From a virus, in IMG/VR virus record IMGVR_UViG_3300029845_000007: a stretch of DNA of 64,000 bases. One strand, given 5' to 3'. Made by a program: the position numbers and the translations under genes. The first letter of the stretch is position 1; every line of letters begins with the position of its first letter. Below the pieces are notes generated by a model that was not told the DNA's origin, did not search any database, and saw nothing but the letters and a program-made list of their open reading frames with translations. Shown here in pieces: positions 14,255 to 60,300 of the stretch.

Positions 14255-14262
14255 CCAGTTAC

Positions 14263-14977: not shown

Positions 14978-15019
14978 AATTGTTAATTTATAGTTAAAAA
15001 CTCATTTTCGGCTTCTAAA

Positions 15020-40537: not shown

Positions 40538-40712
40538 CACTAGAAACTGTTGGAATAATTATAGGAGGATTAATATTTGCATCAATACCATTTGGAATGT
40601 TAATCTATTGTATTGTAAAAGAATTAGCTGAAAAGAAGTTATGGGGATATTTATTATTCATAGTAATAATGATAATATTGTTTTTAACGAAATCTTCCAT
40701 AGAAACTTCATA
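40536..40712 (+). CDS. Small membrane protein (58 aa, 2 TM).
   Basis: ATGA overlap with the previous ORF. MTLETVGIIIGGLIFASIPFGMLIYCIV... Confidence 0.3.
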
Positions 40713-40806
40713 ATAGATTAGAACTATTAATAGTAGTAATACTGTTGATAGTTCTTTTTTTTATGTTGTACTTGGATAAAATCAACGTATTAATGATAGT
40801 TGTATT

Positions 40807-40915
40807 GCTGGACTTGCCTACGCTCGCAAAGCTCGCTAAATCCCCCATAAAGGAATGGAATTATAGGTAAACCACTCCTCTATGGGGGAAGAAAGCGAGC
40901 CGATAGGCGAGCGAG
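40807..40915. repeat. About 110-bp imperfect palindrome built from two inverted extended copies of the GC-rich dispersed element.
   Basis: Left arm cgctcgcaaagctcgct-aaa-tcccccataaaggaatgg. Right arm ccactcctctatggggga-agaa-agcgagccgataggcgagcgag. Located at the convergence point of the rightward and leftward gene blocks. Confidence 0.7.
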
Positions 40916-41347
40916 ATATAGTAAAGCTAGTATTAATAATAATAGTTCAAACAATAATACTAACGGCACTGGGGATAGTGTTCAGGAAGATGTTCTTCGT
41001 TAGATAGAACATTTGGGAACTTTTTGGATATAGTGAGGTCATAGACGGAGTAAATAGTATTCGGCTCTTTTTCGGGTAGTGAAGCTAAATCAATCGCTAT
41101 TGACAATCATTCTACTAATCCTTGTAGCTTTGTTTCTATTTATCGTCCGAGGTTTTGCACTAGGGCGGAGACACTGCCTAAATGAAATAGTACTTATAAG
41201 TACTAAGACTAATCGAGTTCCCTAGCTCTCCACACTACACGCAACTAATCTAATTAGTCAGATAGCAAATGCTAAATCCCGTACAACAGTCCGAGACGGT
41301 AGGTACTTGTTCACTGCAAAGGTAGTAATTATTTTGATATAAACAAT

Positions 41348-41378
41348 AAGTCGGACTACTTTCACAAGCAATCCGACT
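41348..41378 (-). terminator. Possible terminator downstream of the giant gene.
   Basis: 7-bp stem (agtcgga/tccgact) with a 16-nt loop, followed on the minus-strand RNA by a U-rich tract. Weak. Confidence 0.3.
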
Positions 41379-41408
41379 TTCCTATGAGTTGTAATATTAA
41401 GTAGTTAG

Positions 41409-44400
41409 TTATTCTTCATCTTCATCAGTAATCATATTAGCAACAACTTGACCTAAACCACTAAACGGACTACTACGTACTTTATAGTAACTATTATTAG
41501 CACCAAGTCTTTCATGTTTTATAATCTGATTAACTAATGGTACTTGTTTAAAGAAATTTACTACAAGTTTATTTTCATCTGAATAGCTTCCTGAATTATA
41601 ATATAAATCATCAGGATTACCAGTAATAATATAGCTACAAAGTGCTCCTAATAATCTAAGATTATCTTGCGCAATACTTAATGCAGCAACAGGTTGACTA
41701 TATAGTTTCTTACCTTCATTAGCTAATCCCCACGGAGTATATTGAATAATTTCAGACATTAGACGGTCAGCACTATATAAGATATAGTCAGCTACTTGTG
41801 TAGAATCATCATCGTCATCTAGCATTAATTTTCCTACTACAAATAGTGCTACTGCTTTAGTAATAGCTATCCATTCACCTAAGCATCTACGAATATTGGC
41901 TTTATCATATTCAGGAAGAATGTTATAATAAGTAGTAAGATTAGCTACAAAATCTGCATAACCTTTAGCAATTCCTTGAAGAGTACGAACAGCTTGAAGT
42001 TCGTTACTATCATTAAGTTCGTAGTATTTCTTAAATGGCATTGCTATAAACTCACCTAAACTAACATAAGTTCCTTTACTAATAGATTCTCTAGTTTCAT
42101 TATATATACCGTCAAAGTGACCTAAACGATAACCAAAACGTTTTTGGAATCCAGGAACTAAGTGTTTATGGAACTGCATTAGTAAAGCTCCCCACCAAGA
42201 TTGTTGTAATTGATTAGCACCAATCTTATCATAGATACCATGTATTTGATGATTAACTGATATAACCTTATTACGGAAAGCTGCAATATCATTATTAGTA
42301 AGACCACTGTCAGGTTTAAGAATAGCAACACCATTTTTCAAGATAAGACTTTCTCTAAAAGAAGGATGATTCTCGAACTTAGTTCTTTCTTCTTTAGTAT
42401 CTTCTTTATAGGTAGCTTTAAACTCTTCTCTTATCTCTTTAGGAACAGAGCGTAAGAAGTCAGTTATTATATCAGCTTTAAACTTAACATAACGTTCTTT
42501 CTCAATATATGATTCAAGTACTTTATCTCTGAATGTTTCATATTTAGTAACTAATTCAGGATTATTCTTACGAAGAACTTTAAGCAATGCTTCTTCTCTA
42601 AGTCCCATAGCAAACTGTTCAAATGACATTACTTTATTCTTACCATTAACAGTAACAACTCTATGAGAATGAAGCATAGCTAACAATGTAGCGTTCTGCA
42701 TATAATGTTCACCTGCGGTTTGTTGGATAAACAACAGATTTTCTAATTTACCCATAGGATTGTTACCTTTACCATAACGTTCTGTTATCATATCAGATTC
42801 AATAACATTGAATAATCTAATAATAGCATTAGTTTCGTTATTAGTAGTTTCATTATAAGCATCAGCTAAATAACTACCTACATTCTGCATCCATTCGTTC
42901 TCACCTTTACGGAAGTCTTTGTATTTAAAGAATTGTCCGGCAGCCATTTCCATTTGTATCTGTGTCTTACCATATAATACGTTGGCAATACCACCAGTAA
43001 CGTTTAACATCATAAACTTACTAGATACCATATTACGCATAACACGAGATACTTTAGAACGAGTACCTTCATCCATTTCAAATTCATTAAATACTAACTT
43101 ACGAACTTGATTCTCAAAGTGCTTAACTATATTAGAATCATCACTTTTAGTTGTGCGTATTTCTTGTTTACCAGTAATTCTACTAAGTAATCTATTATCC
43201 ATAAGTTTATCGTTAGGATTTCTCTTAATAATATCCATATTACGTAATTGATTACTAGTAATTTTAGCTAATCTAGCTATATCATTACGAGTATTAAAGT
43301 TATACATACTATCAATAAATGAATTAAGTCTTTCAAGAACATTAGGATTATTACGTTCTACATTTTCCTGTGCTCTTTGCTTACGTAACTCATTGTTCCT
43401 AGCTTGAGTTTCACGAACATAAGCTAGATATTCATCAGTAGTTTCACCTTCTTGTTTCTCACGAATAGGAAGAAGTTTAATCTCTGATAAACTATGTAAC
43501 ATAGGAGCATTACTAAATCTTTTATATAGATTAAGCTCTATATCAGATTTATTAGGAGTATCATACCAACCATGACTGCGTTTAAAGTCTTGCCAATAAT
43601 CAGTAAATCCTTGATGTGGTTGTTCAACAGCTTGATTAGGTAAATAACCACGATTAATATAAGCACGACTACGTTTATCTTTAACAAGACTATTAAGTAG
43701 ATTATCTACTTCATTGTATAGTTGTTGCTGATAGTTATTCATTCCATAATATTTATCATTGCGATATTTATTAGTAGAAGGTTGTAACTTAACTTCATCA
43801 TAGTTAGGATTCTTGTACTTGTCTTTAACTTTAGTTTCTAACCATTTATATTTAGGACTATATTCCATATTATTAGCTTCGTCCTTAACTATCATTTGTC
43901 TCCAAATAGCTAATGGTTCGTATTCTTTAGTAATAGGATTAAGCACATGATTCTCGTTATACCATTTATCAAATACTACTTTACCCATTTTGTTCATAGC
44001 CACATACATAGCTTCGTAGTATACAGTATTGATATAGCTTATATGCTCATCTAACCACTTTTGAGCTTGTTCTTCATTTGGCTTAACTCTACCAACAGCT
44101 GCTGCAAACATTTGCTCTTGATGTTTCTTTAAGTTAGCTATTTGCACTTCTGTAAACTTAGTACCGTCAATAACACCTGTTTCATCATACTTACCGTATG
44201 CCATAGTACGAACAAAACTATCAAAAGGATTGCCAGCACGAGTATCCATATAAGCTTTCTTTAACTCATCTAAGAACTCACCTTTTAACTTATAGTCAGT
44301 ATTAGCTTTAAGCCATTCAGCTGATTCTCGATAAGTTTCAGATGTTTCAGGGTATTGAAGTCCTTCAATAGCTTGTTTATAACGAATAGTAAAAGCATCC

Positions 44401-47400
44401 TTAGGTCTGTTCTCTTTATACTTATTATTAAGTTGACGACGAGACAATAGATAATTATTAACTGCATTAGCTTCATAATAATTCTCTTTGTAATTACCGT
44501 CAACATCAATAACAGCACGCATTTCAGTAAGTTCACTTTGAATCTCGTTAAGACGTCTTTCATTTTGAACAGTAAGAGTACTATAATCATTGTCAATCAT
44601 TGTACTTAATATATCTCCTTCTTCATGCAATAGCTTCATTAACTTAACATAAGTTTCAGGGTATTTATTAAGTAACTGGTTTGTATTGTAGTACTCTTGA
44701 TACATCTCTTTAACGTATTCACGTTCTACATTATCTATTAAGAACTTCTCTAACTCATCTTTAGCTTTCTTATATATTAAACCGTCTCGACCGTTCGGGT
44801 CTTCGATTTGTGCCAGTTTTACAGCCTCTTTTAGCGACCTTAATTTTTCAGTGAACGTTTCATTATACGGCAGCAAAAGATTGCCATTTTCGTCCAAAAT
44901 ATCGTTCAGAGACACGTCTATACCGTTGTTTTTTGCGTCCTCAATGATAGCCGATATTGCCGAAGTAAACGCTATCTTTTTGTCTCTAGCTTCTATTTCA
45001 CTAGCTCTTAACTGATTCATCATTTGTTTAAGAACTATTTGAACTATTGGTATATGTGTCTCTTGACTATCAGCTAACCAAAACTGGAAGAAGTTTTCAT
45101 CTTCAAATGCTTCTGTAATGCTAAGCATATTAGATTGTACACGAGGGTCACTAGAAAGACTAGTAATGTAACTATCGAAGTACATCTTAGTACTACGTTT
45201 AACTACATTATCTAAGTCTTTGATACGTTTGAACTTATCCTTAATCTGTTTAAGCATATCATTAGTTCTACGCAAACCTTCGATTTCTTCTTCTGTTTCA
45301 CTTACAGTATAAGCCTCATCAATATTATAAGGTTGAATAGCTTCAATAATAGAATAGTCTTCTACAAATCTATTAATATCATCTAGGAACATCTCATAAC
45401 GAGTACGTAATGTTTCATCCTTTAACATAAGGTCGAATAACTTCTTATTAGTTATACTCCATTTCTCTTGAACTATCTTGTTACCATTTTCATCTAACTT
45501 ATAAGTTCCGTCAGGATTAGTAACATAAGTAGTAAAGAAGTTGTGTATATCAAATAAGAAATCATCAATACGTCTATTAGTATAACCATTGATAATTCTC
45601 AACGCTTGTTCACGTAAGTTATCATTTAACTTAGTAGCTGTATTAGAACGTAAATCAATAGCTGTAAATGAACGGAAAGCATCGTTTAATGCAGCTTCTT
45701 CTACATTAGCATTACTACGTTCAACACTTTCAATAACACGAGATATATAATCATTTATCTCTTTATCATTATCTATCAATGCAGATTCAAGTATATCTTC
45801 ATTAATAAAGTTATCTTCTGTCTGAACACGAATAATGTTATTATTAGCAAATTTATCTAATCTAGCATTTTCTTTAACTACTTGAGTAATGGCATTACGT
45901 CTAGGGAATTGTAATTGACTAACACTATTAATAGTTACTTTCTTACTATACATATAGTCAGGAGTGAGACCAACAGATTTAGTAGTTACACGACCTAAGT
46001 TAGTAACAATATAAACATTACCTTCCTTTTCGTATCTAAAATATCCACCAGCTCTAAAACCTGTATTATCTACAACAGTTTGTAAAACAGGAACAAAACC
46101 AATACCATTAACATTAACATCTTCAATAGTTTGATTAATGCTAGCTTTAAGTTGAGCATAATAAGGAGATTCAGAATTATCTGATTTCTTCTTTCTAAGT
46201 TGAACTTCATTAGCTTCTAACTTAGTCATAGATGTTTGTAGTCTCTTGGCTGCAATATCAATGTTATTACGGTCATTAATAAGTTTACGGATATTACCGT
46301 AATTCATATTAGGAGCTACAACAACATAATTAGTAATACCAACAGCTTCAAGAGATTCAATAGTATCTAGTATGACCTGATTATCAGTAGCAGCAATAAT
46401 GTATCTACGAGAAGTATCAACTTGTTGCTCCTTTATGGGGGAAGTTAAGACAGTACTATTAGGAAACGCTTCTTCTATTAATAAATTAGCACCAGCTTCA
46501 AATGCTTTAGGAAGAACTACAAACTTACGAATATCAGAGTTCATAGCTATATTAATAGAACTAATAAATGCAGGGTCATACTGATTAATAGAAATTTCTT
46601 CTAATATATCTAATGGAAGAAACATTCTATTATTATCAGGATTAACACTAATTTCTCCAATTTCATTCTGTTCTAATGGATTAGTAGGAAGCATATATAC
46701 AACATCATTATCATATACTAGCTTATATAAACGTAGAACTTTATTATTATCATTAGTTTTAGCGTAATGACGATACTTACGATTATCTTCACTACCAGTA
46801 ATCATTCTGCGTTCTTGTGCTTCTTTAAAACTAAGCATACCTACACCAAGTCTATTGAATACTATCTTATTAGATTCTTTGTACTTCTTATTCTCAAATG
46901 TAAGTACATCAGGATTATTAGGATTAGTTCTAAAGAATAAGTCACGTAATTTTTCTATTGCCTTATCATCATTACTAAGTCTTTCATAGGTTCCTGTTTC
47001 ACTACCGTATTGAACCATACTATTAATGGCTTTGTCTGAATCATTAATAATATTAGTAGCTGTTGAAACTCCATTATCAGAATCAATACCAGTATCCTGT
47101 CCATATAAAAGCTCAACAGGAATAATCTTACTAACTGTTCCGCCTTTAAACTTATAACCTTCTACTACCATAGAATATCTTACTAAATCCATAGCTGTAA
47201 GTTTAACGAAAGGATTATTACTATGCCAAGCATTACGAAACATCTGATATTGAGATTCAGTAGATATAGTACTATCAATAATAGATATTCTATCATAACT
47301 ATTGCGACGACCTTTATACTCCACATTTAGATTTTTAAATAGATTATCATCCGAAGTATATCTTTGAATCAATACTACTTTATTTGCAGGAGACAACTTC

Positions 47401-50400
47401 ATAAATGCTTCTACATTCTTTTCAGACATATCAGACATATCGAAGCTACCTATTACATTAGTATAACCATATAATCTAGCACGAGTATTCTGTTGACTGC
47501 TAATAAGATTCAAATTATAACTAGGAATAAACTCATTATCGCTTCTAGTTATAAATCTATTAGTATTAACAAAATTAGATTGTGCTTGACTCATATTAAT
47601 TATGAAACTCTCTAACTGTTGAATAGTTTGTAGATTACGAACATCGAACTTACTAACTAACTCACGGAACTGTGGAGTTTGAGTTTTGAATATTTCACTA
47701 TCACGAATAATCTTTTCAGTAGCTATACAGCTATACTTCAGTTGATAATATAAAGAAGGATATGCTGATTCTGAATCATCCTGATTAATATCGTTAATAG
47801 TATTGAAACTAATCTTAGGATAAATAGCATCTATAAGATATTTATTACCTTCTTCTGTAACAGCTTTAAGAACAGGATTACCTTTCTTAATACGAGCAAT
47901 ATTGTTATTCTTAATATCAGTAATACGATTAATTACATTATCAATTTCGTTAGCAGATTTACCAGCACCAAACTTATCACTAGTAATAACCATCATGTTA
48001 GTATTGATTTGGTCACCTATCTCTTTGAAATATTCAAATGCCCTTAATGCTTTAATCTGATATATAAGATTATCTGTATTATTATAGCTAGTACTTTCTA
48101 CATCATCTTTAAGATGTTCTCTTAATTCAGTTACTCGTATTCCTTCTTCGAGTAATTCATTTTCATTGATAGTTATTCCTCTAGCTTCAAGCATTGCTTT
48201 AACATCTTTAAGACGAGTTTTCTTAGTAATACTATTAGCTGGAATACCAACAGTCTTAGCCAATCTTATATACATATCTCGTCTCAATCCTATAAGGGGA
48301 TTAAATCCAGTTTCACCGAATACATTATCATTAGCATTTTGTCTAGCAATAAGTTCGGTTATTACAGGTTGATTAACGAATAAGATAGAAGTTTCATAGT
48401 TTGCACCACAATCAACAATAGACTTATATACATCGAAAGTATATAAATCAACATTAGGTACACCACCTTCTTTTACACCGTCAAGAATAAGTGCAGTAGT
48501 TTCAGAAGAGTAAGGAGTAATTAAACGATTATCTATATTAAGATTATCGTAACTCCAACCTAACTGATTATGGTCTACCATTACTTCTTTTCCACTTCTA
48601 GTTACGTCTCTGAAACGTTTTCTTAATTTTGCTTGAGCGTCTTTGGCTTCTTTCTCTGTATTATATGTATATACAAACCTAAAACCACCATGAGCACCGT
48701 CAATAATAGTCTTAGCTTTATTACCAATAGAGGCAAAGTTGTCACGATTAACAGAAATAGCTTTAAGACGTGCACCGGACATATTAGCATCACGATACCA
48801 ATTTTGAGCAATTACTGAATTAATATTACGATAAGTCTCTGACAAACCTTCAAAGATATTACTCTTTGCAGCTTTAATATCTTCAAAATTACTAGACGAT
48901 AAGTTCTCACCAATAGATACTGGTAGATTCATTATATTAATAAATGTATCTACTATTTTATTGTTACGAGCATCACGAGTATTTTGTTGAGCTACTGTTA
49001 ATTGACTAAATTCTTCAAGAGACATAGCTCCTACTATTTCAGCTCTTGCTTGAATAGTTTGTTCTAATCTAGCTCTACGAGTTTCATCAGCATAATCAAT
49101 AGCTAGTTGTTCAGCGTTATCTTTTACATTTTGATAAAATTCTCTTTGTTCATTAATAACAGATTGAATATTACGATACTGTTGTGCAAACTTAGCAACA
49201 TATTCATCATTAGCATATTCACTTTCATAAAAGTCCATCTTACTTACAATAGCGTCTACTCTTTCACCAAACTTTAATTCTTTTGATTTAAAAGTAATAG
49301 TAAGATTATCTTTTATTTCTCTTGGAAGCTCAGCCCATGTTTCATCTGTTTCAGCTATTAAATCTCTAACTTGGTCAGTTAAGAATTTATCATATTCTTC
49401 ATTAGCTTTAAGAACAGTTTCTCTTGCAGCTTTACGAGCTTCTTTAAATTCTTCTTTAGTAAATTCAGAATTAGTAGCTTTACGAGTTTCTTTATCTATT
49501 AAAGAATTAACATATCCTATATATCTACGATAAGTAGATACTTCGTCTTCTCCTCCTATATATTCGACTTTATGAGGTTTACCATTTCTATCAAAATAAG
49601 CAGTATGATAAATACCATAGATACTATCAATATCAAAGTCAGCACCGGTCTGTAATACCCATTCATCAGGAACAACAATAGTAGAACCTTGAGATTCATC
49701 TAATAAACCTACTACTTTCATTACTGCTACTGATTGCTTACCTTCTGTTGGAATACGATAACCAATCATAGTATCTAGTCCAGCATTTTGTAAATCTTTA
49801 AGAGTAACTTCCTTAACTAGATTACCTTCTGCATCATAAGTATTATAAGCTTTTACCATCCATTTAGGTAACAATATCTCTACTATTTGACTACCGTCTT
49901 TATGATACGTTAGTTTACGTCCAAGAGAATAACCGTGTTTCTCTTCTACTCTAGATTGCATCAAATCTCTTAAATCACTACGACCTGATAGTTCGGTCAT
50001 GCCAATATCTGAAACTTGACTAGCATGAAATCCTGGAAGTACTTGTCGAGTAACACGATTAGTAAATATACTATTTACAATATTTTCTATCTTGCTACGA
50101 ACTAGATTAGTCCAAGCAGGCATATAAGGCAATCCAGTTTCAGGATTTATTTCAGCATACTTACGATAATTACTGTCTAATCCTCTACGAGTTAACTCAT
50201 CCTTAATAAGAGATATAAACTGATTATTATCTATCTTAGCTTGATTACCTTCATATACTACATTACCTTTAGCATCAATCTCTACACCAATACGAGCAGC
50301 AGCATCTTTAAAACTATCTTGAATATTAGCAGTAAAGTTGTCAAAGAAATCTTTAATAAGAGATTGACCTTCGGGAGTATTACCAATATTATCTATTAGT

Positions 50401-53400
50401 TTCTTAACAATTTGCAGTCCTGCCTTATTTTCACCATCCATGTGTTGAGGAATATCTTGCTGGGTATAAAGATTAGAATACCAACCAGTTTTATACTTAG
50501 TTTGAATATCCAAGTTAAACTGTTTCAACCTTTCTTTAGAGGGGAATTTCCCATGAGAATCCCAAAATTCTAGTACTCTATTAGTAGTAGCTTTTTCAGT
50601 AGTAGTAAAGTTAACCTGACCTATATTATTATCAGTCATATATTTAGCTAAAGCAGCAAGTTCACTATTGCCTAAGAATCTAGGTATAAGTACGAACTCT
50701 GCATTTTTAATCTGAATAGGATTAGCTAACTTAGCATCATTATCTATTTCTAAGTCATAATAGAAGTTCTTTTGAACTTGTATCTTCTTAGATAATTCTC
50801 CTAACTTAACATTGTCAATAGGCTTACTTTCGTCATAAAGAGCTTCAATTAAATCTTTATAACTATCATACTCTCCACGTAGATACATTCTACGAACAAA
50901 TTCATCAAGAGTAATAAACGATTGAGCATCTGTTACTTCTGACTTATCTTTAGAGAACTGTTTAAGTATAAAAGCTCTAGTCTCTTTAGATACATTAGCT
51001 ATATCTAATTGCTTCTTTAAATCATCGAGAACTTTACCGCTACTTTGAACATCTTCAAGAGTAATATATTTGAAACTACTATCTATACTAATAGTCTTAT
51101 TAGGAGCTACTGTTATATCTCCCAAATGCTTTTGTACATTATATAAATCATATCCTGCATAAGCTAATCCTCCGGCTTGATATTCTTTGTTACGTTTAAT
51201 AGTATCACGAGAATCTTTATAATATGCTTCATCTCCGAAGAACATATCATTTAGATTATTATATTGAATCTCATAGTTAAGTACCATTTCTGCAATGAAA
51301 GCGTTAAATGATTCTTGACTAGCATTCTTATATTTATCTACAAACTCTTTATTAGAACTGTATTTAGCGACAGCTTCTTGTATTCTATAATTGATATAAT
51401 TATCTATATAATTATAAACTGAATTACGAAGCTCACCAGTAAGTCTAATATTATATTCTCCGTTCTCATCTTGTATTAGCGATATTTCACTATTCTTTCC
51501 CCCGTAAAGGAGTGAGAATACGTCACCTCCCTCGAATAGCCAATTCATATCCACTGTTTTAGCTGTCTCACTATTATAGTTATTAAGATTCTTAACTTTA
51601 TCAATAAGTAGACTTCTAAATTTAAATACATTACCAGTTGGTTTACCATTGCTATCAAGAATACTTTTACGATAATGATAGTTAAGTCTAGCTTCTGATT
51701 TACGTAAATCTTTAAACTCTTCTTTTATCTTAGGTTTACCGTTCTCATCTGATACAATAGTTACTACTCCATTCTCAACAGTTGTCTCAAATAAGAAGTT
51801 AATAGCTTGCGCCATTTCTGCGAGTTCTTTAGCATAAATATTAGCATAAGCTACATATATAGGATGTCCACGATTAATAGAGCTGTTAGCATTAAATAGT
51901 CCAGTATAATCTAACTTATAACTATTAAATACGAAAGTCTTAGGTGCATCAGAAGGAGTTTGAGTAAAGAACTTAGATTTCTTAACTCCTTTAGTCATCT
52001 CATAATTGTCACCATTATTAGCGTATTCATTAAGCGTAATAATATCCCACTCAAGAGCATTAATATCTTTATAAGATTTAGCCTTTCCTGTTACTTCATT
52101 ACTAACTCCGTTATATAATTGTGCACCAAATTCACGATAATATTCAGTTAGTTTATAACCAGTATCTGTAAGACGAAGTAAACCTGGGACTATTTTTCCA
52201 TTAGACAAAGTTTTCTCAATAAGAATATTACTATATCTGTATTGAGGAATATTAGTAAATTTAACTAAGTAATCACGTAGTTCGGTATTACTAACAGGAT
52301 TATCATTATAACGATTATCGTTAATTCTTTCAAAGAACTTACTTATATAGTTGTTTTTTAGAATATCACTAACTAGATTGTTCTCTGCATTAATACTATT
52401 AAATTCAGAATCTACTATCTGATAATCTTTAAATCTATTAGATATACGATTGGCTATATTATTAGCATAACCACCTTTGTATTGTAGTTGAGATTTATCA
52501 AAAGGAACTACCACATATTCTTCATTCTCTTTAGTTTTAGCATATTCACCTGCATAATAGATACGTTGTGCTTCATTATCTATCTTTAATAGATTAGTCG
52601 CCTTACCTACTACTTTATTAAACTCTAACAAATCATCGACAATAGAAGAGATATTAGAAAGTTGGTTATCACCGAAGTTACGAACGTAGTTAACAACACC
52701 CTGTCTATTGATGCCGAAGTTATACTTATTAAAAATTGCAGCAATTTGCTCCGTAATTTCTTGGATTTCATTTGTGTTAGAATTTTTTAGTGTAGATAAT
52801 CTGTTTTTAAGTTCGTCTAATACGGCAATATCATTAGCCATAATAGAAGGATTGTGAATAAGTGAATCGAAACTATTAAGTATTTTGTTTTGTAGATTAA
52901 GTTTAGGAAAAGTATTACGATTCTTAGTAACCACATTAGAACCGTCTTGACTATAAACTACTTCATTACGTTCCCAAATAGATTGTTTTAGTTGAGTAAA
53001 TATCTTATTTCTCATCTGAACATTGGCTTCGTCTTCTAGTAAACGTGCAGCATATTCTAAATGAGATACTTCTTTAAATCTTGCAGCAATAGTATGGAAA
53101 CTCTCTATCATAGCTTCAACACTAGAGAAATTACCATAGTTATTAATAGCTTTAAAAGAACTAGAAAAAGTAGTACTTTCAGCCATGCCTGAATAAGTAT
53201 TATTAGAAGTATCAGGCTGTTCATTTATAAAACTATTACTATTTGTTTTAGGTAAACGAGCAAACCATTCTTTTACTTCTTTGCTAACATTTTTATCTAT
53301 ATCTTTTCGTTGGTCAGATATTTCAGACCAATCAGCACGAAGAGCAGCAATAGTTTCTTGGTCATCTTGACGAGAGTTTTGTTCACTATCTTCTTTAACA

Positions 53401-54128
53401 TCATCATTAGATTCAAAATCTTCATTAGTATCTATACCAAACTCTTTGCTAAGACTAACTACTTCCGGTGAGTTAATTACTATATCAAATAACTCATTAC
53501 GATTATAATTACCGCCATCGTAAAGATTACGAATAATAGTACCTACATAAGCCTTTTGTTCTTGAGTAAGTTTCTTATCATTCTCTTTTAGATGTCTATT
53601 AAGATAAGTAATCATAGTCAGCTTTATAGCGGCTTGAGGACTTAACTCATTACCAGCTTTATCCTTTATTACTTCGTTTTCACCCTTACGTTTTTTATTA
53701 GCAAGAGCTTTACGAATACTTCCTTGACTCTTTAAATAAATAGTAGCAAGAATATTAATAGCGTGGTCTTCTTTCGCTATGTCATTACCAAATACACCAG
53801 TCCGTGAAGTACGAACGTTCTGAACATAATCTTTACTATTGATAATCTCTCTGTTATTATATGCTATTATAGCATTAACAGTATTAGTATCAATATTCTC
53901 ATCATTAAAATCTCTACCAGTCTTTTCTTTATACCAATCACGAAAACTATTGTCTTCGATAGTAGCAAGGTATTCAGTAGACTTTCTAACATCATTATTA
54001 GTAAGCGTTAATAGCTTATCTAATTTAGGGTTACTAGGAATACAACTCATATACTTTATATTATTAATTAAGTTATTACTAACATTACCAAAGATAGCAT
54101 TATTATCAATACTATCAAATAGATTCAT
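41409..54128 (-). CDS. Giant virion protein (4239 aa) containing a DPBB-type RNA polymerase catalytic domain. Likely a virion-packaged RNAP fusion.
   Basis: Uninterrupted 12.7 kb ORF. ...VVPDEWVLQTGADFDIDSIYG... (about residue 1495, DNA about 49627-49641) matches the universal Mg-binding xADFDxD motif of multisubunit and crAss-like virion RNAPs. Four copies of the dispersed motif lie inside (46424, 48286 weak, 50533 weak, 51496). Confidence 0.6.
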   Translation of the reverse strand: MNLFDSIDNNAIFGNVSNNLINNIKYMSCIPSNPKLDKLLTLTNNDVRKSTEYLATIEDNSFRDWYKEKTGRDFNDENIDTNTVNAIIAYNNREIINSKDYVQNVRTSRTGVFGNDIAKEDHAINILATIYLKSQGSIRKALANKKRKGENEVIKDKAGNELSPQAAIKLTMITYLNRHLKENDKKLTQEQKAYVGTIIRNLYDGGNYNRNELFDIVINSPEVVSLSKEFGIDTNEDFESNDDVKEDSEQNSRQDDQETIAALRADWSEISDQRKDIDKNVSKEVKEWFARLPKTNSNSFINEQPDTSNNTYSGMAESTTFSSSFKAINNYGNFSSVEAMIESFHTIAARFKEVSHLEYAARLLEDEANVQMRNKIFTQLKQSIWERNEVVYSQDGSNVVTKNRNTFPKLNLQNKILNSFDSLIHNPSIMANDIAVLDELKNRLSTLKNSNTNEIQEITEQIAAIFNKYNFGINRQGVVNYVRNFGDNQLSNISSIVDDLLEFNKVVGKATNLLKIDNEAQRIYYAGEYAKTKENEEYVVVPFDKSQLQYKGGYANNIANRISNRFKDYQIVDSEFNSINAENNLVSDILKNNYISKFFERINDNRYNDNPVSNTELRDYLVKFTNIPQYRYSNILIEKTLSNGKIVPGLLRLTDTGYKLTEYYREFGAQLYNGVSNEVTGKAKSYKDINALEWDIITLNEYANNGDNYEMTKGVKKSKFFTQTPSDAPKTFVFNSYKLDYTGLFNANSSINRGHPIYVAYANIYAKELAEMAQAINFLFETTVENGVVTIVSDENGKPKIKEEFKDLRKSEARLNYHYRKSILDSNGKPTGNVFKFRSLLIDKVKNLNNYNSETAKTVDMNWLFEGGDVFSLLYGGKNSEISLIQDENGEYNIRLTGELRNSVYNYIDNYINYRIQEAVAKYSSNKEFVDKYKNASQESFNAFIAEMVLNYEIQYNNLNDMFFGDEAYYKDSRDTIKRNKEYQAGGLAYAGYDLYNVQKHLGDITVAPNKTISIDSSFKYITLEDVQSSGKVLDDLKKQLDIANVSKETRAFILKQFSKDKSEVTDAQSFITLDEFVRRMYLRGEYDSYKDLIEALYDESKPIDNVKLGELSKKIQVQKNFYYDLEIDNDAKLANPIQIKNAEFVLIPRFLGNSELAALAKYMTDNNIGQVNFTTTEKATTNRVLEFWDSHGKFPSKERLKQFNLDIQTKYKTGWYSNLYTQQDIPQHMDGENKAGLQIVKKLIDNIGNTPEGQSLIKDFFDNFTANIQDSFKDAAARIGVEIDAKGNVVYEGNQAKIDNNQFISLIKDELTRRGLDSNYRKYAEINPETGLPYMPAWTNLVRSKIENIVNSIFTNRVTRQVLPGFHASQVSDIGMTELSGRSDLRDLMQSRVEEKHGYSLGRKLTYHKDGSQIVEILLPKWMVKAYNTYDAEGNLVKEVTLKDLQNAGLDTMIGYRIPTEGKQSVAVMKVVGLLDESQGSTIVVPDEWVLQTGADFDIDSIYGIYHTAYFDRNGKPHKVEYIGGEDEVSTYRRYIGYVNSLIDKETRKATNSEFTKEEFKEARKAARETVLKANEEYDKFLTDQVRDLIAETDETWAELPREIKDNLTITFKSKELKFGERVDAIVSKMDFYESEYANDEYVAKFAQQYRNIQSVINEQREFYQNVKDNAEQLAIDYADETRRARLEQTIQARAEIVGAMSLEEFSQLTVAQQNTRDARNNKIVDTFINIMNLPVSIGENLSSSNFEDIKAAKSNIFEGLSETYRNINSVIAQNWYRDANMSGARLKAISVNRDNFASIGNKAKTIIDGAHGGFRFVYTYNTEKEAKDAQAKLRKRFRDVTRSGKEVMVDHNQLGWSYDNLNIDNRLITPYSSETTALILDGVKEGGVPNVDLYTFDVYKSIVDCGANYETSILFVNQPVITELIARQNANDNVFGETGFNPLIGLRRDMYIRLAKTVGIPANSITKKTRLKDVKAMLEARGITINENELLEEGIRVTELREHLKDDVESTSYNNTDNLIYQIKALRAFEYFKEIGDQINTNMMVITSDKFGAGKSANEIDNVINRITDIKNNNIARIKKGNPVLKAVTEEGNKYLIDAIYPKISFNTINDINQDDSESAYPSLYYQLKYSCIATEKIIRDSEIFKTQTPQFRELVSKFDVRNLQTIQQLESFIINMSQAQSNFVNTNRFITRSDNEFIPSYNLNLISSQQNTRARLYGYTNVIGSFDMSDMSEKNVEAFMKLSPANKVVLIQRYTSDDNLFKNLNVEYKGRRNSYDRISIIDSTISTESQYQMFRNAWHSNNPFVKLTAMDLVRYSMVVEGYKFKGGTVSKIIPVELLYGQDTGIDSDNGVSTATNIINDSDKAINSMVQYGSETGTYERLSNDDKAIEKLRDLFFRTNPNNPDVLTFENKKYKESNKIVFNRLGVGMLSFKEAQERRMITGSEDNRKYRHYAKTNDNNKVLRLYKLVYDNDVVYMLPTNPLEQNEIGEISVNPDNNRMFLPLDILEEISINQYDPAFISSINIAMNSDIRKFVVLPKAFEAGANLLIEEAFPNSTVLTSPIKEQQVDTSRRYIIAATDNQVILDTIESLEAVGITNYVVVAPNMNYGNIRKLINDRNNIDIAAKRLQTSMTKLEANEVQLRKKKSDNSESPYYAQLKASINQTIEDVNVNGIGFVPVLQTVVDNTGFRAGGYFRYEKEGNVYIVTNLGRVTTKSVGLTPDYMYSKKVTINSVSQLQFPRRNAITQVVKENARLDKFANNNIIRVQTEDNFINEDILESALIDNDKEINDYISRVIESVERSNANVEEAALNDAFRSFTAIDLRSNTATKLNDNLREQALRIINGYTNRRIDDFLFDIHNFFTTYVTNPDGTYKLDENGNKIVQEKWSITNKKLFDLMLKDETLRTRYEMFLDDINRFVEDYSIIEAIQPYNIDEAYTVSETEEEIEGLRRTNDMLKQIKDKFKRIKDLDNVVKRSTKMYFDSYITSLSSDPRVQSNMLSITEAFEDENFFQFWLADSQETHIPIVQIVLKQMMNQLRASEIEARDKKIAFTSAISAIIEDAKNNGIDVSLNDILDENGNLLLPYNETFTEKLRSLKEAVKLAQIEDPNGRDGLIYKKAKDELEKFLIDNVEREYVKEMYQEYYNTNQLLNKYPETYVKLMKLLHEEGDILSTMIDNDYSTLTVQNERRLNEIQSELTEMRAVIDVDGNYKENYYEANAVNNYLLSRRQLNNKYKENRPKDAFTIRYKQAIEGLQYPETSETYRESAEWLKANTDYKLKGEFLDELKKAYMDTRAGNPFDSFVRTMAYGKYDETGVIDGTKFTEVQIANLKKHQEQMFAAAVGRVKPNEEQAQKWLDEHISYINTVYYEAMYVAMNKMGKVVFDKWYNENHVLNPITKEYEPLAIWRQMIVKDEANNMEYSPKYKWLETKVKDKYKNPNYDEVKLQPSTNKYRNDKYYGMNNYQQQLYNEVDNLLNSLVKDKRSRAYINRGYLPNQAVEQPHQGFTDYWQDFKRSHGWYDTPNKSDIELNLYKRFSNAPMLHSLSEIKLLPIREKQEGETTDEYLAYVRETQARNNELRKQRAQENVERNNPNVLERLNSFIDSMYNFNTRNDIARLAKITSNQLRNMDIIKRNPNDKLMDNRLLSRITGKQEIRTTKSDDSNIVKHFENQVRKLVFNEFEMDEGTRSKVSRVMRNMVSSKFMMLNVTGGIANVLYGKTQIQMEMAAGQFFKYKDFRKGENEWMQNVGSYLADAYNETTNNETNAIIRLFNVIESDMITERYGKGNNPMGKLENLLFIQQTAGEHYMQNATLLAMLHSHRVVTVNGKNKVMSFEQFAMGLREEALLKVLRKNNPELVTKYETFRDKVLESYIEKERYVKFKADIITDFLRSVPKEIREEFKATYKEDTKEERTKFENHPSFRESLILKNGVAILKPDSGLTNNDIAAFRNKVISVNHQIHGIYDKIGANQLQQSWWGALLMQFHKHLVPGFQKRFGYRLGHFDGIYNETRESISKGTYVSLGEFIAMPFKKYYELNDSNELQAVRTLQGIAKGYADFVANLTTYYNILPEYDKANIRRCLGEWIAITKAVALFVVGKLMLDDDDDSTQVADYILYSADRLMSEIIQYTPWGLANEGKKLYSQPVAALSIAQDNLRLLGALCSYIITGNPDDLYYNSGSYSDENKLVVNFFKQVPLVNQIIKHERLGANNSYYKVRSSPFSGLGQVVANMITDEDEE

Positions 54129-54315
54129 TAGACGGACGAAAACCGCACGTTACGAAGGCAGATGGATGCCCGTAGACCTCAAATTCCTGCCGAATTTCGC
54201 ATTTTATATGCTATCGTGATAGTAAGATAAGGAAAATATAAAAGTCCGGCAGATGCGCTTAAAATGGCTCATTCTAAGGCTCTCTGCCGGACTTTCGTCT
54301 CTAGGCTTATCTTAC

Positions 54316-57300
54316 TTAACTACATACGAAACTAAGCTCACCAGTGTCAAACAAATGCGTCACAATAGCCTTTTGTCGATTATTCAATCCCTCAATCAGA
54401 CTATCGAAATTATCGACTTGACGGTAGTTATCACTTATACTACTATCTAAATCTAAGTCTATATCAGGAATATCAAATACATCATCAGTAGGAACGCTAA
54501 CATCTTCCTCTGCTCTATCAAAAGTATCGTCATGAGTAACAGTAGAAGTACTAGCTGTATCACTAGTTTCTAATCCAATAGTAGATAAACGATTACGAAC
54601 TTCTCCAAGTAATGTATTATCTATTTGTCCTATCTTACCTATTAATTCTACTAAAGCATCTACTATTTTAGTAAATAGGTTGTTTGATTCAATAGTAGGA
54701 TTAGAATCATACTTAATTCTAGCTAGTAATCTAGCAAATGTGCGATTAGTAATAGCTTCGACTACAAACTCTTCAATAGCAACAGCTCTAGGTTTACTAC
54801 TATTTAAGAAATCTCCATACTCATCTATTAGACGAGAATCTTGATTAATAAAGTTAGCAAACTTATCGTATAAGTCTCCGAATGATTGTTCTATATTAGC
54901 ACGTTCATCATTAAGTAGATAATGTACACCTTCATGTATAAGAGTAAGAACTCTACGTTCAGGAGCAAGACTATTAAAACGATTACTAAGAGTAATAGTA
55001 TTACCACCAGCGACTATTCCTGCAAATCTACCTTTTTCACCTACTGTTTCAATATCAGGACTAAGTTTAATACCAGCAGATTCTAATGCAGATACAACAG
55101 ATAATAGATTAGGATTATCAGTATTAGCTTGTGCAACTTCCATAAGAGTACCTATTTGAGGAACACTGTCTTGACTAGCAAGTGGGTCAGGTACAACTAC
55201 GGGAGACACAGTTTGTTGCCCCTTTATGGGGGAAGTAGCGGCGTTAGCCGCGTCAGTACGACTAGCATTGCGACTAGGATTCATAAGGGTAATAGTCCTA
55301 TTATAAACATCACCAACATAATTAAAGTTACTAACAATATTACCTTTACTATCAGTAACACTTCCTAAATCAGTAACCAATACTCCGTCCTTAGCTACAA
55401 ATTCTTCATAACTACTATAACCAGTATCAAACCATTCATCTTGAAGTATATTAGGTATCTTAGCTTGTAACTTACCGCCTACTACTCTAAATAAACTAGA
55501 TTCACCACGAATAGCCGAATTAACAACATTACGAGTAAGTAAAGCATATACTTCTTGTAACATTTTACTAAAGTTACCATGATTATTAGTAGGAACAAAA
55601 CCATTAGGCATACGAGCCATAAGTCTTCTAGGTTTAAGTTCACCAGGAATAGAGAAAGCTACATTTCTATCTTTAAGATTAAAATAAATAGTTGGTGCAA
55701 CTCTATTAATAGGTATTAAAGCATGACCTCTTACTTCATAACCATACAATACTTTCTGTTTACCTATATATTTAGATACTTCTTCTAATAGTTGAGTATG
55801 AAGATTTTCATTGCCTTGTAAAGTAGCATCTAATAAAGAATGAAGTAGTTTATCTAATCCTTCATTAAACCTCTTAGTATATTCAGTAGCACCAGTTTCA
55901 CTATTACTCATAGTATTCTCACGACTAGGAACTGCAATAAGTCTTCCTTCTGAATCTTTAATAGTCATACCTACTACATTTCTAGGAATACGACTAGCCG
56001 CAATAATAGTATTGGTTTTAATATCAGCTACTCCACCGTCAACTCCTACTACTAAACGATAACCGTCAGTTGCTTCACTAGTAGTAACATCTCCAAACTT
56101 ACGATATATAGGATTACCTTGTTTATCTTTAGCATAAATAACACTACCTGAACTTGTACGTCCAACAACTAGACGTTTCTTTTTAGACTTAGTTTTACTA
56201 ATAGAGGACTTTAAGTTATTAATGTCCGTATAAGACTTCTTGAGTTTATTCATCCAATTAGTTAACGAATCGTTAACAATGGTACTAAAATCAGACTGAT
56301 TAACATTAAGAGCATTATTAAAGAATATAATACTATTAAGATGTCTAATCCTATCTAATAGATTAGTTTGAGTATCACCGAATAAACTAGTTAGATTCTT
56401 CCAGTTCTTATTCTCTTGTAAAGCATTAAGCTGATGTCCGAATGTTCCTTCAACTTCAGGGTTATTACGAACACGATACAAACGACGTATATTATTAAGT
56501 GTTTGTACAAACTCTTTAGCACTTTCATCTTCATTACTAATAATAGATTGGAGTTGCGTTATAAAATCTATATTACCATTTCTAACAGTGTATCTCCAAC
56601 CTTGATTTATAACTTCAACGTTCCCATTATTATAATTAATTTTAGGAAACTCACCTATCTTAATTCCACGAGATTTAACGATAAGATTATCGTTTTCATC
56701 TAGTTCTACATTTACTGTATCATTAGTCTTTAACTGACCGATACGAGAGTAAACCTTACTATCATTTAGATTAACTAGATTAAAGAAGTAACCATTATCT
56801 TTAGTATTCTGTCTATTCTCTGCAATAGCATTTTCTAATGTCTTACTTGCAGACTGTATAATATCAGAAGGCGTCTTAACTTCTGTATCAACATTAACTA
56901 TCTTACCGTTTATTATTTGACGATTAGCTAAAACTTTAATATCATTATACAGATTAATAGCTCTAGGATTAAGTTGTTGTAAATATATCATCATATCATT
57001 AAGACTAGTAAAAGTTTTACCTTCTACTTCATTGCCTTGTATCTGATTATACAAGTCTATGATAAGATTGATTTCTTCTATACGTTGACGCTGACCTTCT
57101 AAATCATTATCAGATATAGCTGATTCAAGAACTGTATCATCAGTTCTAGTATCTTCTTTCTTAGAAGTATCTACAACAGTAATATCTCCAATAGCAATAG
57201 CTGCATTAAGTTCTTCAATAGTGACATCAGCAATTATATTGCCTTTAGCATCTAATCCGTCAATACTTACATTTCCGAATCTACTAATACGAATATCAAT

Positions 57301-60300
57301 ATCGTTAACTTTAACTGGTTTACGAGATACGTCACTAAGACTTGCAAAAGGATTTACTATCGTAAATTCAAGATTACCTATATTAGACTTATTTACAATA
57401 CCTGAATTAGATTGAGATACTACTTTGTCTAACGTTTCCTTTAATTTCTTCTCTTTTGCAGTCTTTGGTTTAGGTCTAGGCTTAGGCTTAACTTCTAGTT
57501 CTTCTTGAGTCGTCGCTTCGCTCCTCCCTTCCCCCATAGAGAAGGTTTCTTGCTGATTCTCCGGCTGTCTTTGCTGTACTTCATTCTGTATAGCTAACTT
57601 ATTTCTTCTCTTAGTAATAGCTTCTCTTAGATTACTTATTTCATTCTTACCATTCTCTGAATTAGTTAAAATACTAACAGCATTAGATAAACTCTTATTG
57701 CTAGTATTCTGACTTTCTTCATCAGTAAACGCATTATCTAGTGCTTTCTCAAGATTACCAAGCTCTTCTTCATTAGCCATATTAACAAAGTCATTAAGAT
57801 TCTTCTTTGCTGATTTAACTAGATTCTTAGCTGCATCTTCTAATTCTTTCTTACGAGTATCTTCAAATTCCTTAGCTTGTTCATTAGTAGTAATAATACG
57901 AGAACGATAATTATCTCTACGAATTTCATCAAGAAGTATCTGTCCCATATTATCCATATACTCTGAATTAATATTATGAACTTGTTTAGCAAGAGTACCA
58001 AGACTAAAGTCTTTACCTGCCTGTTTAAACAGAGCTACATCACTTTCATCAAGTTCTTCTATTTGTTTCTTGATTAAGTTGTTCTGTTCTTCGCTACCTT
58101 CTATTCCTAATGCAATATTCTCTACACTACGAACATTATCTAGAAACAGACTTTCCATAGAACTTAAACCTCTTCGTAAGTCTGTAACCTTAGATTCAAT
58201 TATTCGCGATAAATCAATATACTGACTAGCTTGCGCTCTATCTAAAGGATTGTTACTATTCTTTAGACTATTATAAGTAGACATTACTTCTCTACGATAC
58301 TGTTCTAATATACCTAATTGCATACGATTCTTAGCCATTGGATTAAGAACTTCATTAATAGCCGGTATGCTATTCTCTAATTGAGATTGAATAGTATTAA
58401 GTCTTTCTACTCGTTTATTTAATAAGTCCGCTTCTTGTGCATTAACTATATTCTCTGATATAGCAACATCTAGTAAAGCATCATCAATATTAGCACTACG
58501 TAACGCAGTAGAATAATTGACATATCTATCGAGAACAGTACGCATAGTTTTCTTTAATTCTTGCGTATCTCTATCGTATTCAACATCATCTACAAGACCT
58601 GAATCAACTAGTTTCTTCTTTAGTCTAGGGTCTTCAATATAATCTTCAAGTAGTTCATAATTACCTGAACGAATAGCATTTAAAGTAAGAGTAGTAGTAA
58701 ACTTCTCTTTAGCCGCTGCCCGCAAATCTTCTTGTTCTTCAGGGCTAACCTTAGTATAACGAGTAGTACCAACTGTTGGGTCTTGACTAACAGTACCGTC
58801 ATCTAAATAAGTAATAGGATTACCATTAGCATCACGTTCTATTTGATATGGATTCTCACCATTATCAATAATCTGCATCTGACGAGCATACTCATTGAAT
58901 ACCTGTTCACGACCATTTATTTCAGCAATACGTTGTTTCTCTTCTACATTACCACCTTTACGATTATTAATAGCTGACATAGTACCACCAAAAGTAATAC
59001 CACCAATAACTCCCCAAAGTGCAGCATTGTATAATTGAGGATTCTGCAAGTACTTCTCTATTCTATCCATAGATACAGCACCATTGTATTGTTCAGCTTG
59101 ACCTAACAAATAACGACCGTATAAAGTACCTTCTTCTTGACCTACAAAGTTAATAGCTTCTTCAATACCTTCTGTTAATTCAGATAATAGTAGATTCTCA
59201 CTAGAATTAACAAAGCGATTTATTTTACCTGCAAAATCTTTAATAGTACCTTTTGCCGCTTGACCTAAAGTTTGACTAGCAGATTCAACACCAGTAGAAG
59301 CTATTCTATCGAGAGCTTGATTCTGTGAATAACGAATACGTGGAGTAATAGCACGATTGACTTGTCCTATTGCTTTATTAACAGCACGTAACTGCATGAA
59401 ATCAAAGAATACGTTACCTGCGTTATAACCAAAGTTACGCATAGCTGCCTTATCTGCAACTATAAGAGCAGCTTCTTCTTTAGTTCTTTCTTTAGCCTCA
59501 CTTGCAATATCAGGATTGTTATCTAACCAATTCTGAAACTCTTCGTCAGACATTCCAGTAAATAGAGACAATGCTTCACCTTCTATTTGTTCTGCAACAC
59601 CACGAGCTTCTTGATAATTCTCACCTAAACGCATACCAATAGCTGTAATACCGTCATTAGCTAATATCTTTAATCTATTAGCACGATATACATTATCTAA
59701 TTTAGTAGCCTTCTTTGCCCAATTCATTGCACGACTTACTTTAGAACTACTACGTCCTAATGCTGCAACTCCTTTACCAACAGCTCCAACTCCTTTAGTT
59801 AAAAGAGTGCCAGGAATCATTAAAGATAGAGAACTAGCAATACTAGGAACTTGACTAAAGAACCAACCTGAAAAGTCATTCATATCAAATGCTTTATCAG
59901 GGTTCTCACGATATATAGGAAATAAATCGTCACGAACATAATCAGATATAGTATCACCAGCTCTTGTAATAGGATTACTAAAAGGTTTATCATCCCATAA
60001 TCCGGCAGTAGCTAAATCTATTAGCATACCCATACCTCCAACAGTATCACCAATAACAGTACCAATAGTTTGTCCTAAAGCATTACTTGCCTGTTTCCAA
60101 GCTGATTGATTCTTAGCACGTAGAGTTTCTAATTCTTCTCTACTTTGATACCTATTAGGTTCAGCACCATACTTAGCTAATGAATGATAATCTTCCTCTG
60201 TACCAGTAAACACTTCTTTACCTGTAAGATTACGAAACATAAAGTTGCCTTGTGCAGCAACATCAGGTTTATATTTAGTAACAGTAGGAACATCATTAGC

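Follow-up and report, generated by a model that had tools for sequence, protein, structure and literature searches.

A giant reading frame in a crAss-like phage sequence as the probable virion RNA polymerase polyprotein of a Jahgtovirus

Identification of the giant reading frame

The 64,000-nt DNA stretch of IMG/VR virus record IMGVR_UViG_3300029845_000007, analysed here over its full length and referred to as the window, contains a giant open reading frame (ORF) of 4239 aa at positions 41409..54128 of the minus strand, which starts with ATG and has no in-frame stop under translation table 11. Our analysis indicates, with a probability of roughly 0.9, that the giant ORF encodes the virion RNA polymerase (RNAP) polyprotein of a Jahgtovirus infecting Bacteroides and that it is the orthologue of gp33 of phage ΦcrAss002 and gp44 of p-crAssphage. 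A preliminary description of the window had reported a single uninterrupted 4239-aa ORF in the standard code and had interpreted it as a virion RNAP fusion protein; the frame was confirmed, and we add its strand, which that description did not give. The chain would comprise four parts: a lineage-specific N-terminal region (aa 1 to ~700), a single-chain two-barrel DNA-dependent RNA polymerase of the phi14:2 gp66 type with the Mg2+-binding motif DFDID (aa ~800 to ~2450), a fast-evolving linker (aa ~2400-2800), and a final part, extending to aa 4239, that corresponds to a module found as a separate virion protein in other crassviruses (the C-terminal part of phi14:2 gp65; crAss001 gp49).

A megablast search with the 24 kb around the giant ORF gave 92.9% identity over 95% of the query against the uncultured phage cr107_1 (Jahgtovirus intestinihominis) and 89.6% over 96% against Bacteroides phage ΦcrAss002 (Jahgtovirus secundus). 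Judging from these nucleotide identities, the window belongs to Jahgtovirus (Crassvirales, Intestiviridae) and represents a human-gut crAss-like phage close to ΦcrAss002. The gene order known as the 'transcription block' of Crassvirales, in which a zincin-bearing protein, an RNAP and an RNAP-associated module are encoded beside structural genes, is present in the window: the ORFs at 60377-63142, 54316-60372 (which contains HEGVH) and 41409-54128 correspond to gp31-33 of ΦcrAss002, gp46-44 of p-crAssphage and g067-g065 of phi14:2.

The RNA polymerase core and its catalytic motif

The assignment is carried by homology to gp66, the RNAP of Cellulophaga phage phi14:2. A blastp search aligned aa 945-1504 of the giant ORF with aa 860-1368 of gp66 (2e-22), and a hidden Markov model (HMM) built from seven Intestiviridae giants matched gp66 aa 711-1427 (3e-37), which delimits an RNAP core at aa 801-1563 (49440..51728; minus strand, as for all parts of the giant ORF below) that includes both barrels and the connector between them. 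The same HMM matched the crAss001-type RNAP PhiCrAssBcn4_41 at 780-1690 (2e-47) and at 1870-2187. A single-sequence phmmer search of the giant protein against the PDB returned just one spurious 54-residue match, so a profile was needed to reach the gp66 crystal structure: profile A1, built from aa 900-2000 and 31 database relatives, matched 6VR4 chain A over residues 930-1549 (E=1.3e-33) and nothing else of relevance in the PDB.

A comparison of the predicted structure with phi14:2 gp66 had been set beforehand as a test of the RNAP reading, and similarity was found. When an AlphaFold2 model of aa 900-2000 was searched with Foldseek, 6vr4_A was the sole significant match (E=6e-18, probability 1.0, 1219 columns). 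The non-significant tail of the same search was enriched in double-psi beta-barrel (DPBB) proteins, namely formylmethanofuran dehydrogenase subunit D, expansins, kiwellin and the p97 N domain, and also held RNAP subunits from Pol I and the AR9 non-virion RNAP (nvRNAP).

The segment TGADFDIDS occupies aa 1494-1502 (49623-49649), and the DFDID within it (aa 1497-1501; 49626..49640), the only D-hydrophobic-D-x-D string in the giant protein, aligned exactly with 1361-DFDID-1365 of gp66 in a MAFFT alignment. The preliminary description had thus located the right motif, although its coordinates (49627-49641) were one base off for DFDID, and its reading of the motif as the Mg-binding site of a crAss-like virion RNAP barrel is borne out by this alignment together with the profile and fold matches to 6VR4. 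Replacement of any of the three Asp residues of the gp66 motif with Ala abolishes Mg2+-dependent RNA synthesis; gp66 is a virion component that is active in vitro and makes rifampicin-resistant early transcripts (bioRxiv 10.1101/2020.03.07.982082). The fourth residue of the motif in the giant ORF is Ile, a crAss signature, since crAss-like RNAPs all have Ile or Val at this position (bioRxiv 10.1101/2020.03.07.982082). These matches identify the product as a predicted crAss-like virion-type RNA polymerase in which ADFDID would be the metal-binding motif of a DPBB.

The alignment with gp66 allowed us to place the elements of the core, with inferred boundaries for both barrels. The beta-like barrel, DPBB-A, would span ~aa 1110-1217 (50478..50801), the equivalent of the gp66 connector (gp66 1095-1238, mapped with MAFFT) aa 1218-1369 (50022..50477), and the beta-prime-like barrel, DPBB-B, ~aa 1370-1520 (49569..50021), in which IGYRIPTEGKQS and QTGADFDIDS are found. 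Two strings of DPBB-A, IQVQKNFYYD (K1120) and QIKNAEFVLIP (K1141), form invariant or near-invariant columns in A1 and align with 'QPLKGVYFG' and 'YLKYSQAVLLP' of gp66, which lie just before the gp66 connector. These strings form a beta hairpin in the AlphaFold2 model, where the DPBB-B strands are also present, and the DPBB-B alignment took in gp66, crAss001-type and Intestiviridae orthologues. The presence of two DPBBs and a connector of ~140 residues in one chain is therefore supported by both the alignment and the Foldseek match, the latter from a model with a predicted local distance difference test (pLDDT) score of 65. Farther along the chain, MAFFT alone mapped the bridge helix of gp66 (1529-1559) to aa 1771-1801 and its trigger loop (1598-1636) to aa 1861-1905 (together 48414..48818), both tentatively, and the C-terminus of gp66 (~2180) to ~aa 2460-2500.

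Cellular beta-prime models (the Pfam RNA_pol_Rpb1 domains and NCBIfam) had no match in the giant ORF. The product would work like a beta-prime active site, yet it does not appear to be a member of the beta-prime family at the sequence level. Neurospora QDE-1 and the cellular RNAP beta and beta-prime subunits have the same two-barrel architecture and a DxDxD metal site, a likeness shown for gp66 (bioRxiv 10.1101/2020.03.07.982082); they differ from the giant ORF in having Gly at the fourth motif position, where Ile is found here, and the giant ORF encodes a single 4239-aa chain.

Orthologues and purifying selection

The giant ORF was aligned by blastp over its full length and without internal gap with gp33 of ΦcrAss002 (QIG59143.1, MN917146; 12,738 nt, 4245 aa, 'putative RNAP catalytic subunit') at 92% aa identity, and likewise without internal gap with the cr107_1 protein (QOR58216.1, MT774377) at 95%. 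These two phages, which belong to the same genus, share the neighbouring genes, DFDID and both copies of a dispersed 15-mer described below. The differences (~5-8% of residues) are concentrated in aa 1-600 and 2400-2700, and gp33 is annotated with 6 extra N-terminal residues. More distantly, gp44 of p-crAssphage (Carjivirus communis; KP06_gp44, BK010471; 4070 aa), labelled 'putative RNAP catalytic subunit fused to unknown RNAP subunit', aligned in four collinear blastp blocks that cover aa 558-4227. It has the same fused architecture, and gp45 upstream of it likewise carries a C-terminal zincin motif, but identity is only 23-32% and the N-terminus and linker are essentially unalignable.

The orthologue is a single frame in each of the seven genomes compared: 4245 aa in the cultured isolate ΦcrAss002, 4213 aa in cr107_1, 4098 aa in Rudgehvirus jaberico, 4070 aa in p-crAssphage, 4422 aa in cr8_1, 4388 aa in cr11_1 and 4620 aa in cr271_1. 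The exact 4239-aa product was also found on at least five public contigs, one of which is a 97,965-bp human gut metagenome contig.

Labels of these orthologues in GenBank are misleading or inconsistent. Those of cr8_1 and cr271_1 (MT774384 3426-16694; MT774394 52341-66203) are called 'nuclear pore complex-like protein'; that of cr107_1 (MT774377) is a 'hypothetical protein' with a 'peptidase' gene upstream, and gp32 and gp33 of ΦcrAss002 are both called 'RNAP catalytic subunit'. The annotated start of the cr107_1 gene lies 26 codons downstream of the conserved N-terminus.

The ratio of nonsynonymous to synonymous substitution rates (dN/dS, Nei-Gojobori) of the giant ORF was 0.128 against ΦcrAss002 and 0.120 against cr107_1. 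It ranged from 0.05 to 0.33 in 300-codon windows throughout the frame, being lowest in the RNAP core (0.05-0.06) and highest in codons 2401-2700 (0.33). Because every window fell within this range, we conclude that all 12.7 kb are translated and subject to purifying selection.

A Pfam scan detected no intein, Hint or LAGLIDADG domain in the giant ORF, as the preliminary description had noted by eye for intein signatures, and there were no recoded stops. Interruption by an intein or intron, as in the RNAP genes of Delta and Zeta crAss phages, and stop recoding were ruled out by the gap-free alignment with gp33 and the lack of stops. A tandem-repeat scan found no tandem repeats inside the giant ORF.

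Size and frequency of the fused form

A word-index search of 5.8 billion proteins recovered relatives of the giant protein only as fragments of less than ~2300 aa, which gave shallow alignments. An exhaustive phmmer search with the last 680 aa of the giant ORF against 1.84 billion representatives of 50%-identity clusters found 1675 relatives of the C-terminal module, 391 of them at E<=1e-30. Among the best 149 relatives, 120 were at least 4000 aa long (median 4494, maximum 6244) and carried the module at the extreme C-terminus. Only 15 of these 120 giants were shorter than 4239 aa; [AS]DFDxD was carried by 104, mostly as DFDID or DFDVD, and HExxH was also present in seven.

The size of the giant ORF is thus typical, even slightly small, for the family, and the fused form of at least 4000 aa is the norm. 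The preliminary description had called the protein exceptionally large and had given 2000-2500 aa or a split across genes as the usual state of such RNAPs. The first statement does not hold, given orthologues of 4070-4620 aa within the same family and the 120 giants among the best 149 relatives; the second is correct for one part of the order, Steigviridae such as phi14:2 and crAss001, and incorrect for Intestiviridae. Some relatives are far larger (P0163, 6244 aa; P0151, 5160 aa; P0171, 5085 aa). Both the larger giants and those with HExxH would fit triple fusions that unite all three RNAP-associated proteins, a form mentioned by Drobysheva et al.

The N-terminal region, linker and C-terminal module

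The N-terminal region (aa 1-680; 52089..54128) is lineage-specific, weakly conserved and predicted to be mostly helical. Full-length tblastn matches to it were found just in cr107_1, ΦcrAss002 and Rudgehvirus, and a marginal HMM match covered aa 245-616 of PhiCrAssBcn4_41. The junction between the gp66-like and gp65-like halves (aa ~2401-2800; 45729..46928) has the lowest identity to all orthologues, falling to 5-14% against p-crAssphage and cr8_1. Since this least conserved stretch coincides with the end of gp66, we regard it as a fusion linker.

The conserved C-terminal module (aa 3585-4204; 41517..43376) shares homology with the C-terminal portions of two proteins, phi14:2 gp65 and the crAss001 gp49-type protein, in line with the earlier description of the product as a fusion protein. 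Blastp aligned aa 3661-4201 with gp65 938-1403, and HMM searches matched gp65 928-1406 and PhiCrAssBcn4_40 808-1336 (8e-40). PhiCrAssBcn4 gene 40 (1349 aa) corresponds to gp49 of crAss001. According to its record, gp65 is an 'RNA polymerase associated protein' of 1421 aa and a virion component identified by tandem mass spectrometry (MS/MS). A Kyte-Doolittle scan revealed a single hydrophobic helix at aa 4083-4103 (LGEWIAITKAVALFVVGKLML; 41820..41882) followed by an acidic DDDD patch, and both features occur at the aligned position in 9/9 homologues (seven from Intestiviridae, phi14:2 gp65 and PhiCrAssBcn4_40). We infer that this helix may insert into a membrane. A profile of the C-terminal module found nothing relevant in the PDB, and an AlphaFold2 model of aa 3351-4239 from a 15-sequence alignment reached a pLDDT of 58, with all Foldseek matches at E>1 and no assignable fold.

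The gene upstream of the giant ORF (54316..60372, minus strand; 2018 aa) is the orthologue of ΦcrAss002 gp32 (2020 aa) and p-crAssphage gp45, the latter labelled 'RNAP associated protein fused to zincin protease'. It encodes the zincin motif HEGVH at aa 1813-1817 (54922-54936, minus strand), which is the sole HExxH of the block; none occurs in the giant ORF. Pfam, PHROGs and NCBIfam scans of the 2018-aa protein returned nothing relevant. In phi14:2, HExxH lies N-terminally in gp65, at aa 245, whereas here it is C-terminal in the upstream protein, so the zincin domain has moved between partners in evolution. The homology of the gp65 C-terminus to that of the giant ORF likewise points to a domain swap among the RNAP-associated proteins.

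Two arrangements with separate genes have been characterized in other crassviruses. Phi14:2 has the homologous two-barrel core with an identical DFDID, the gene order g067-g066-g065 and, in the last ~480 aa of gp65, the C-terminal module; it differs in that gp66 and gp65 are encoded by two genes (2180 and 1421 aa), the core is ~24% identical, and biochemical and structural proof applies to gp66 only. The same three modules are found in gp47, gp49 and gp50 of ΦcrAss001-type phages, represented here by PhiCrAssBcn4 genes 38, 40 and 41, where they differ in being separate genes (2527 and 1349 aa) with the zincin-bearing gene on the opposite strand.

Coliphage N4 gp50 has a T7-like fold, and neither the PDB sequence searches nor Foldseek revealed any similarity of the giant ORF to N4 gp50, the vRNAP of the N4-like phages (Schitoviridae), or to T7 RNAP. 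The N4 virion RNAP (vRNAP; ~3500 aa) is a functional analogue, being giant, packaged in the virion, ejected and fused to non-polymerase modules. Its authors describe N4 gp50 as a single-chain RNAP of several domains that differs fundamentally from phi14:2 gp66 in global structure (PMC13434306). The RNAP of Thermus phage P23-45 (5002 aa) is a two-barrel functional analogue fused to the tail tape measure, which crassviruses lack.

Alternative explanations and proposed mechanism

Steigviridae keep the modules as separate genes (phi14:2 g066 and g065; PhiCrAssBcn4 41 and 40), as would be expected if a frameshift or chimera, that is, an assembly or sequencing artefact, had joined two or three genes into the 12.7-kb frame. 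We consider the probability of such an artefact negligible, because the same unbroken frame occurs in the ΦcrAss002 isolate and in cr107_1, Rudgehvirus, p-crAssphage, cr8_1, cr11_1 and cr271_1, the identical product occurs on at least five independent contigs, the C-terminal module is shared by 120 separate clusters (50% identity) of proteins at least 4000 aa long, and dN/dS stays below 0.35 across the junction. The sequencing frameshift that the preliminary description had named as a possible refutation is thus excluded by four or more assemblies made independently and by the purifying selection that extends over the entire frame. It is also very improbable that the giant protein is mainly structural or ejection cargo in which the RNAP barrel is a catalytically dead relic. 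The activity data cover no Intestiviridae protein, the gp66 crystal has its DFDID loop in a conformation unable to bind Mg2+ (bioRxiv 10.1101/2020.03.07.982082), and 16/120 giant relatives are without the [AS]DFDxD string; however, the three Asp and the surrounding invariant residues are all kept in the giant ORF, its core is the most constrained part of the gene, and gp66, whose DFDID is identical, shows activity in vitro and accounts for the rifampicin-resistant early transcription.

A different question is whether the chain is cut at all. It is possible, though in our judgement unlikely, that it stays uncleaved and that the C-terminal hydrophobic helix tethers the polymerase to a membrane-spanning ejection channel, coupling early transcription to DNA entry. 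In that case it would be convergent with the three-part N4 vRNAP, which is composed of a membrane domain, an RNAP and a C-terminal domain. In favour of this reading are the maintenance of the covalent fusion in hundreds of lineages, the conservation of the helix and acidic patch from phi14:2 gp65 to the Intestiviridae and the selection, though relaxed, on the linker (dN/dS 0.33). The lone helix is only moderately hydrophobic (Kyte-Doolittle value 1.57), however, and fits a buried core helix equally well, and the C-terminal module to which it belongs is without a structural or fold match. The N4 vRNAP is indeed a single chain and belongs to an ejectosome that is active in transcription; its authors call for work on how the three crassvirus RNAP-associated proteins relate to the N-terminal domain, core and C-terminal domain of the N4 enzyme (PMC13434306). 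Bayfield et al. (PMC10172136), in contrast, assigned channel formation to crAss001 gp45 and gp46 rather than to the RNAP-associated proteins. Drobysheva et al. considered polyproteins of this kind 'likely cleaved into individual components', and a zincin protease domain is encoded in the adjoining gene.

Several observations weigh against the identification of the giant ORF as a virion RNAP polyprotein. Scans of the whole giant protein with Pfam (E<=0.1), PHROGs and NCBIfam (E<=0.01) found no family. The AlphaFold2 core model is moderate (pLDDT 65, predicted template modelling score (pTM) 0.46), with low confidence at the DFDID loop, and the HMM match over the bridge helix and trigger loop stretch is marginal (independent E-value 0.096), the model there being helical with mixed confidence. 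About 60% of the chain, comprising the N-terminus, aa 2000-3500 and the C-terminal module, is without functional assignment. Experimental evidence for packaging in the virion and for Mg2+-dependent activity comes from relatives (packaging from phi14:2 and crAss001, biochemistry from gp66), and the ΦcrAss002 paper named 'RNA polymerase subunits' by prediction only, without virion proteomics. Cleavage, packaging and membrane contact of the giant ORF product are inferences by orthology or analogy.

For the virion RNAP polyprotein that we favour, the orthologues suggest the following course. As with phi14:2 gp66 and crAss001 gp47, gp49 and gp50, the polymerase would be a product of host RNAP transcription, made along with the middle or late genes, and several copies would be stored in the cargo zone of the capsid; in crAss001 virions, gp47, gp49 and gp50, all three RNAP-associated proteins, were found by mass spectrometry (PMC10172136). 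The polymerase would then be driven in a partly unfolded state through the portal and tail into Bacteroides, ahead of or with the DNA. After refolding in the cytoplasm, it would transcribe the early genes independently of the host polymerase, in a rifampicin-resistant manner. Cleavage of the chain may take place within the linker, where the zincin (HEGVH) domain of the neighbouring 2018-aa protein might act as the protease, and the C-terminal helix may contact the membrane or the ejectosome.

Non-coding sequences around the giant reading frame

A terminator-like hairpin with a 14-bp stem followed by a T-rich tail is located at 41348..41379 (minus strand), ~30 nt past the stop codon of the giant ORF. 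A further stem-loop (54243-54293, minus strand) sits in the spacer from the 2018-aa ORF stop to the giant ORF start; its 11-bp GC-rich stem (AGTCCGGCAGA / TCTGCCGGACT) encloses a 29-nt loop and is followed by the T-rich tail TTTTATATTTT. The excessive length of this loop is why the terminator scan passed it over. A sigma-70-type promoter scan upstream of the giant ORF start gave no more hits than shuffled sequence, Bacteroides promoters being outside its model.

In the 1.2-kb stretch (40171-41408) bounded by the last long plus-strand ORF on one side and by the end of the giant ORF on the other, the only ORFs are small, one of them a hydrophobic ORF of ~59 aa at about 40536-40715. This stretch also has a terminator-like hairpin at 40720-40755 (plus strand) and ~500 nt of non-coding DNA with higher GC content. 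RNA folding of the 519-nt non-coding stretch after the giant ORF gave z scores of -0.8 and -1.9, with no convincing structured RNA besides the terminator hairpin. Rfam searches of the whole window at the gathering threshold, and of 40250-41450 by E-value, found no relevant family, and a tRNA scan likewise returned nothing relevant.

Elsewhere in the window, short imperfect tandem repeats with periods of 10-36 nt cluster at 12794-15898, together with three copies of ACCAAATGACTWTAAACATATTGC at 13054, 13445 and 13481. This cluster falls within the region, at about 12-16 kb, in which both gene orientation and GC skew change over, and may be a regulatory or replication-origin region.

A dispersed 15-mer

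With up to 2 mismatches allowed, the window contains the 15-mer TCCCCCRTARAGGRG 20 times, compared with 0.12 expected. The copies (15 nt each) are located at 2497, 6081, 8481, 10487, 15972, 19333, 20048, 25094, 26127, 31043, 32190, 34109, 36570, 40841, 40875, 46428, 51498, 55219, 57530 and 60566; they are found in both orientations and are mostly intragenic. The orientation alternates at 15/19 neighbouring copies (hand count; binomial p about 0.01), and a subset of copies has GC-rich 5' flanks of the GCTYCG type and YGTGATTGCTG 3' flanks.

The preliminary description had counted four copies of this motif in the giant ORF. We found two, even at 3 mismatches, and four could not be reproduced under any definition tried. 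One copy is in the linker (46428..46442, minus strand; TCCCCCATAAAGGAG on the coding strand, encoding SPIKE) and is present at the same place in ΦcrAss002 and cr107_1. The other is antisense to the giant ORF (51498..51512, plus strand), where translation of the coding strand gives LLYGG; 6/7 aligned Intestiviridae orthologues retain the peptide LYGG, and cr11_1 has LYGR. These two copies contain the only CCCCC/GGGGG runs of the giant ORF. The copies at 55219 and 57530 are inside the neighbouring 2018-aa ORF.

In the part shared with ΦcrAss002 and cr107_1, 8/8 copies are conserved in position among the three Jahgtovirus genomes, and conservation within the 15-mer is slightly above that of its flanks (93-94% versus 85-87%). 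The exact 15-mer is frequent in IMG/VR contigs of ~92-97 kb. It was absent from the loci examined in p-crAssphage (BK010471 24000-52000), Obtuvirinae, cr8_1, cr271_1, cr11_1, crAss001-type phages and phi14:2, and the ΦcrAss002 paper does not mention it. Two facing copies, at 40841-40855 (plus) and 40875-40889 (minus), form together with their GC-rich flanks an inverted repeat of ~28 bp with a 13-19-nt loop (40821-40909). This inverted repeat is part of the non-coding gap on which the plus-strand gene block and the giant ORF converge from either side, and the pair is common to ΦcrAss002 and cr107_1. As a weaker addition to the idea of a membrane-anchored polymerase put forward below, the lineage-specific 15-mer might be a DNA signal read by the giant ORF polymerase.

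Conclusions

For the sister genomes, the literature and GenBank already record this gene together with its assignment as an RNAP, its fused state and its giant size. The main value of our analysis is in annotation: it places the window in Jahgtovirus, delimits the polymerase core, the linker and the gp65-like module at the level of residues, and flags the uninformative GenBank labels of the orthologues. The numbers show, in addition, that a fused protein of 4000 aa or more is the usual state in this family. By analogy with N4, we put forward the speculative and rather improbable idea that in Intestiviridae the C-terminal module, by way of its conserved hydrophobic helix and acidic patch, anchors the two-barrel polymerase at the inner-membrane end of the ejection channel, where the enzyme would begin to transcribe, and perhaps help to pull in, the entering DNA. 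If this is true, the membrane-anchored fusion would be functional rather than a mere precursor, and would be the convergent equivalent of the three-domain N4 vRNAP.

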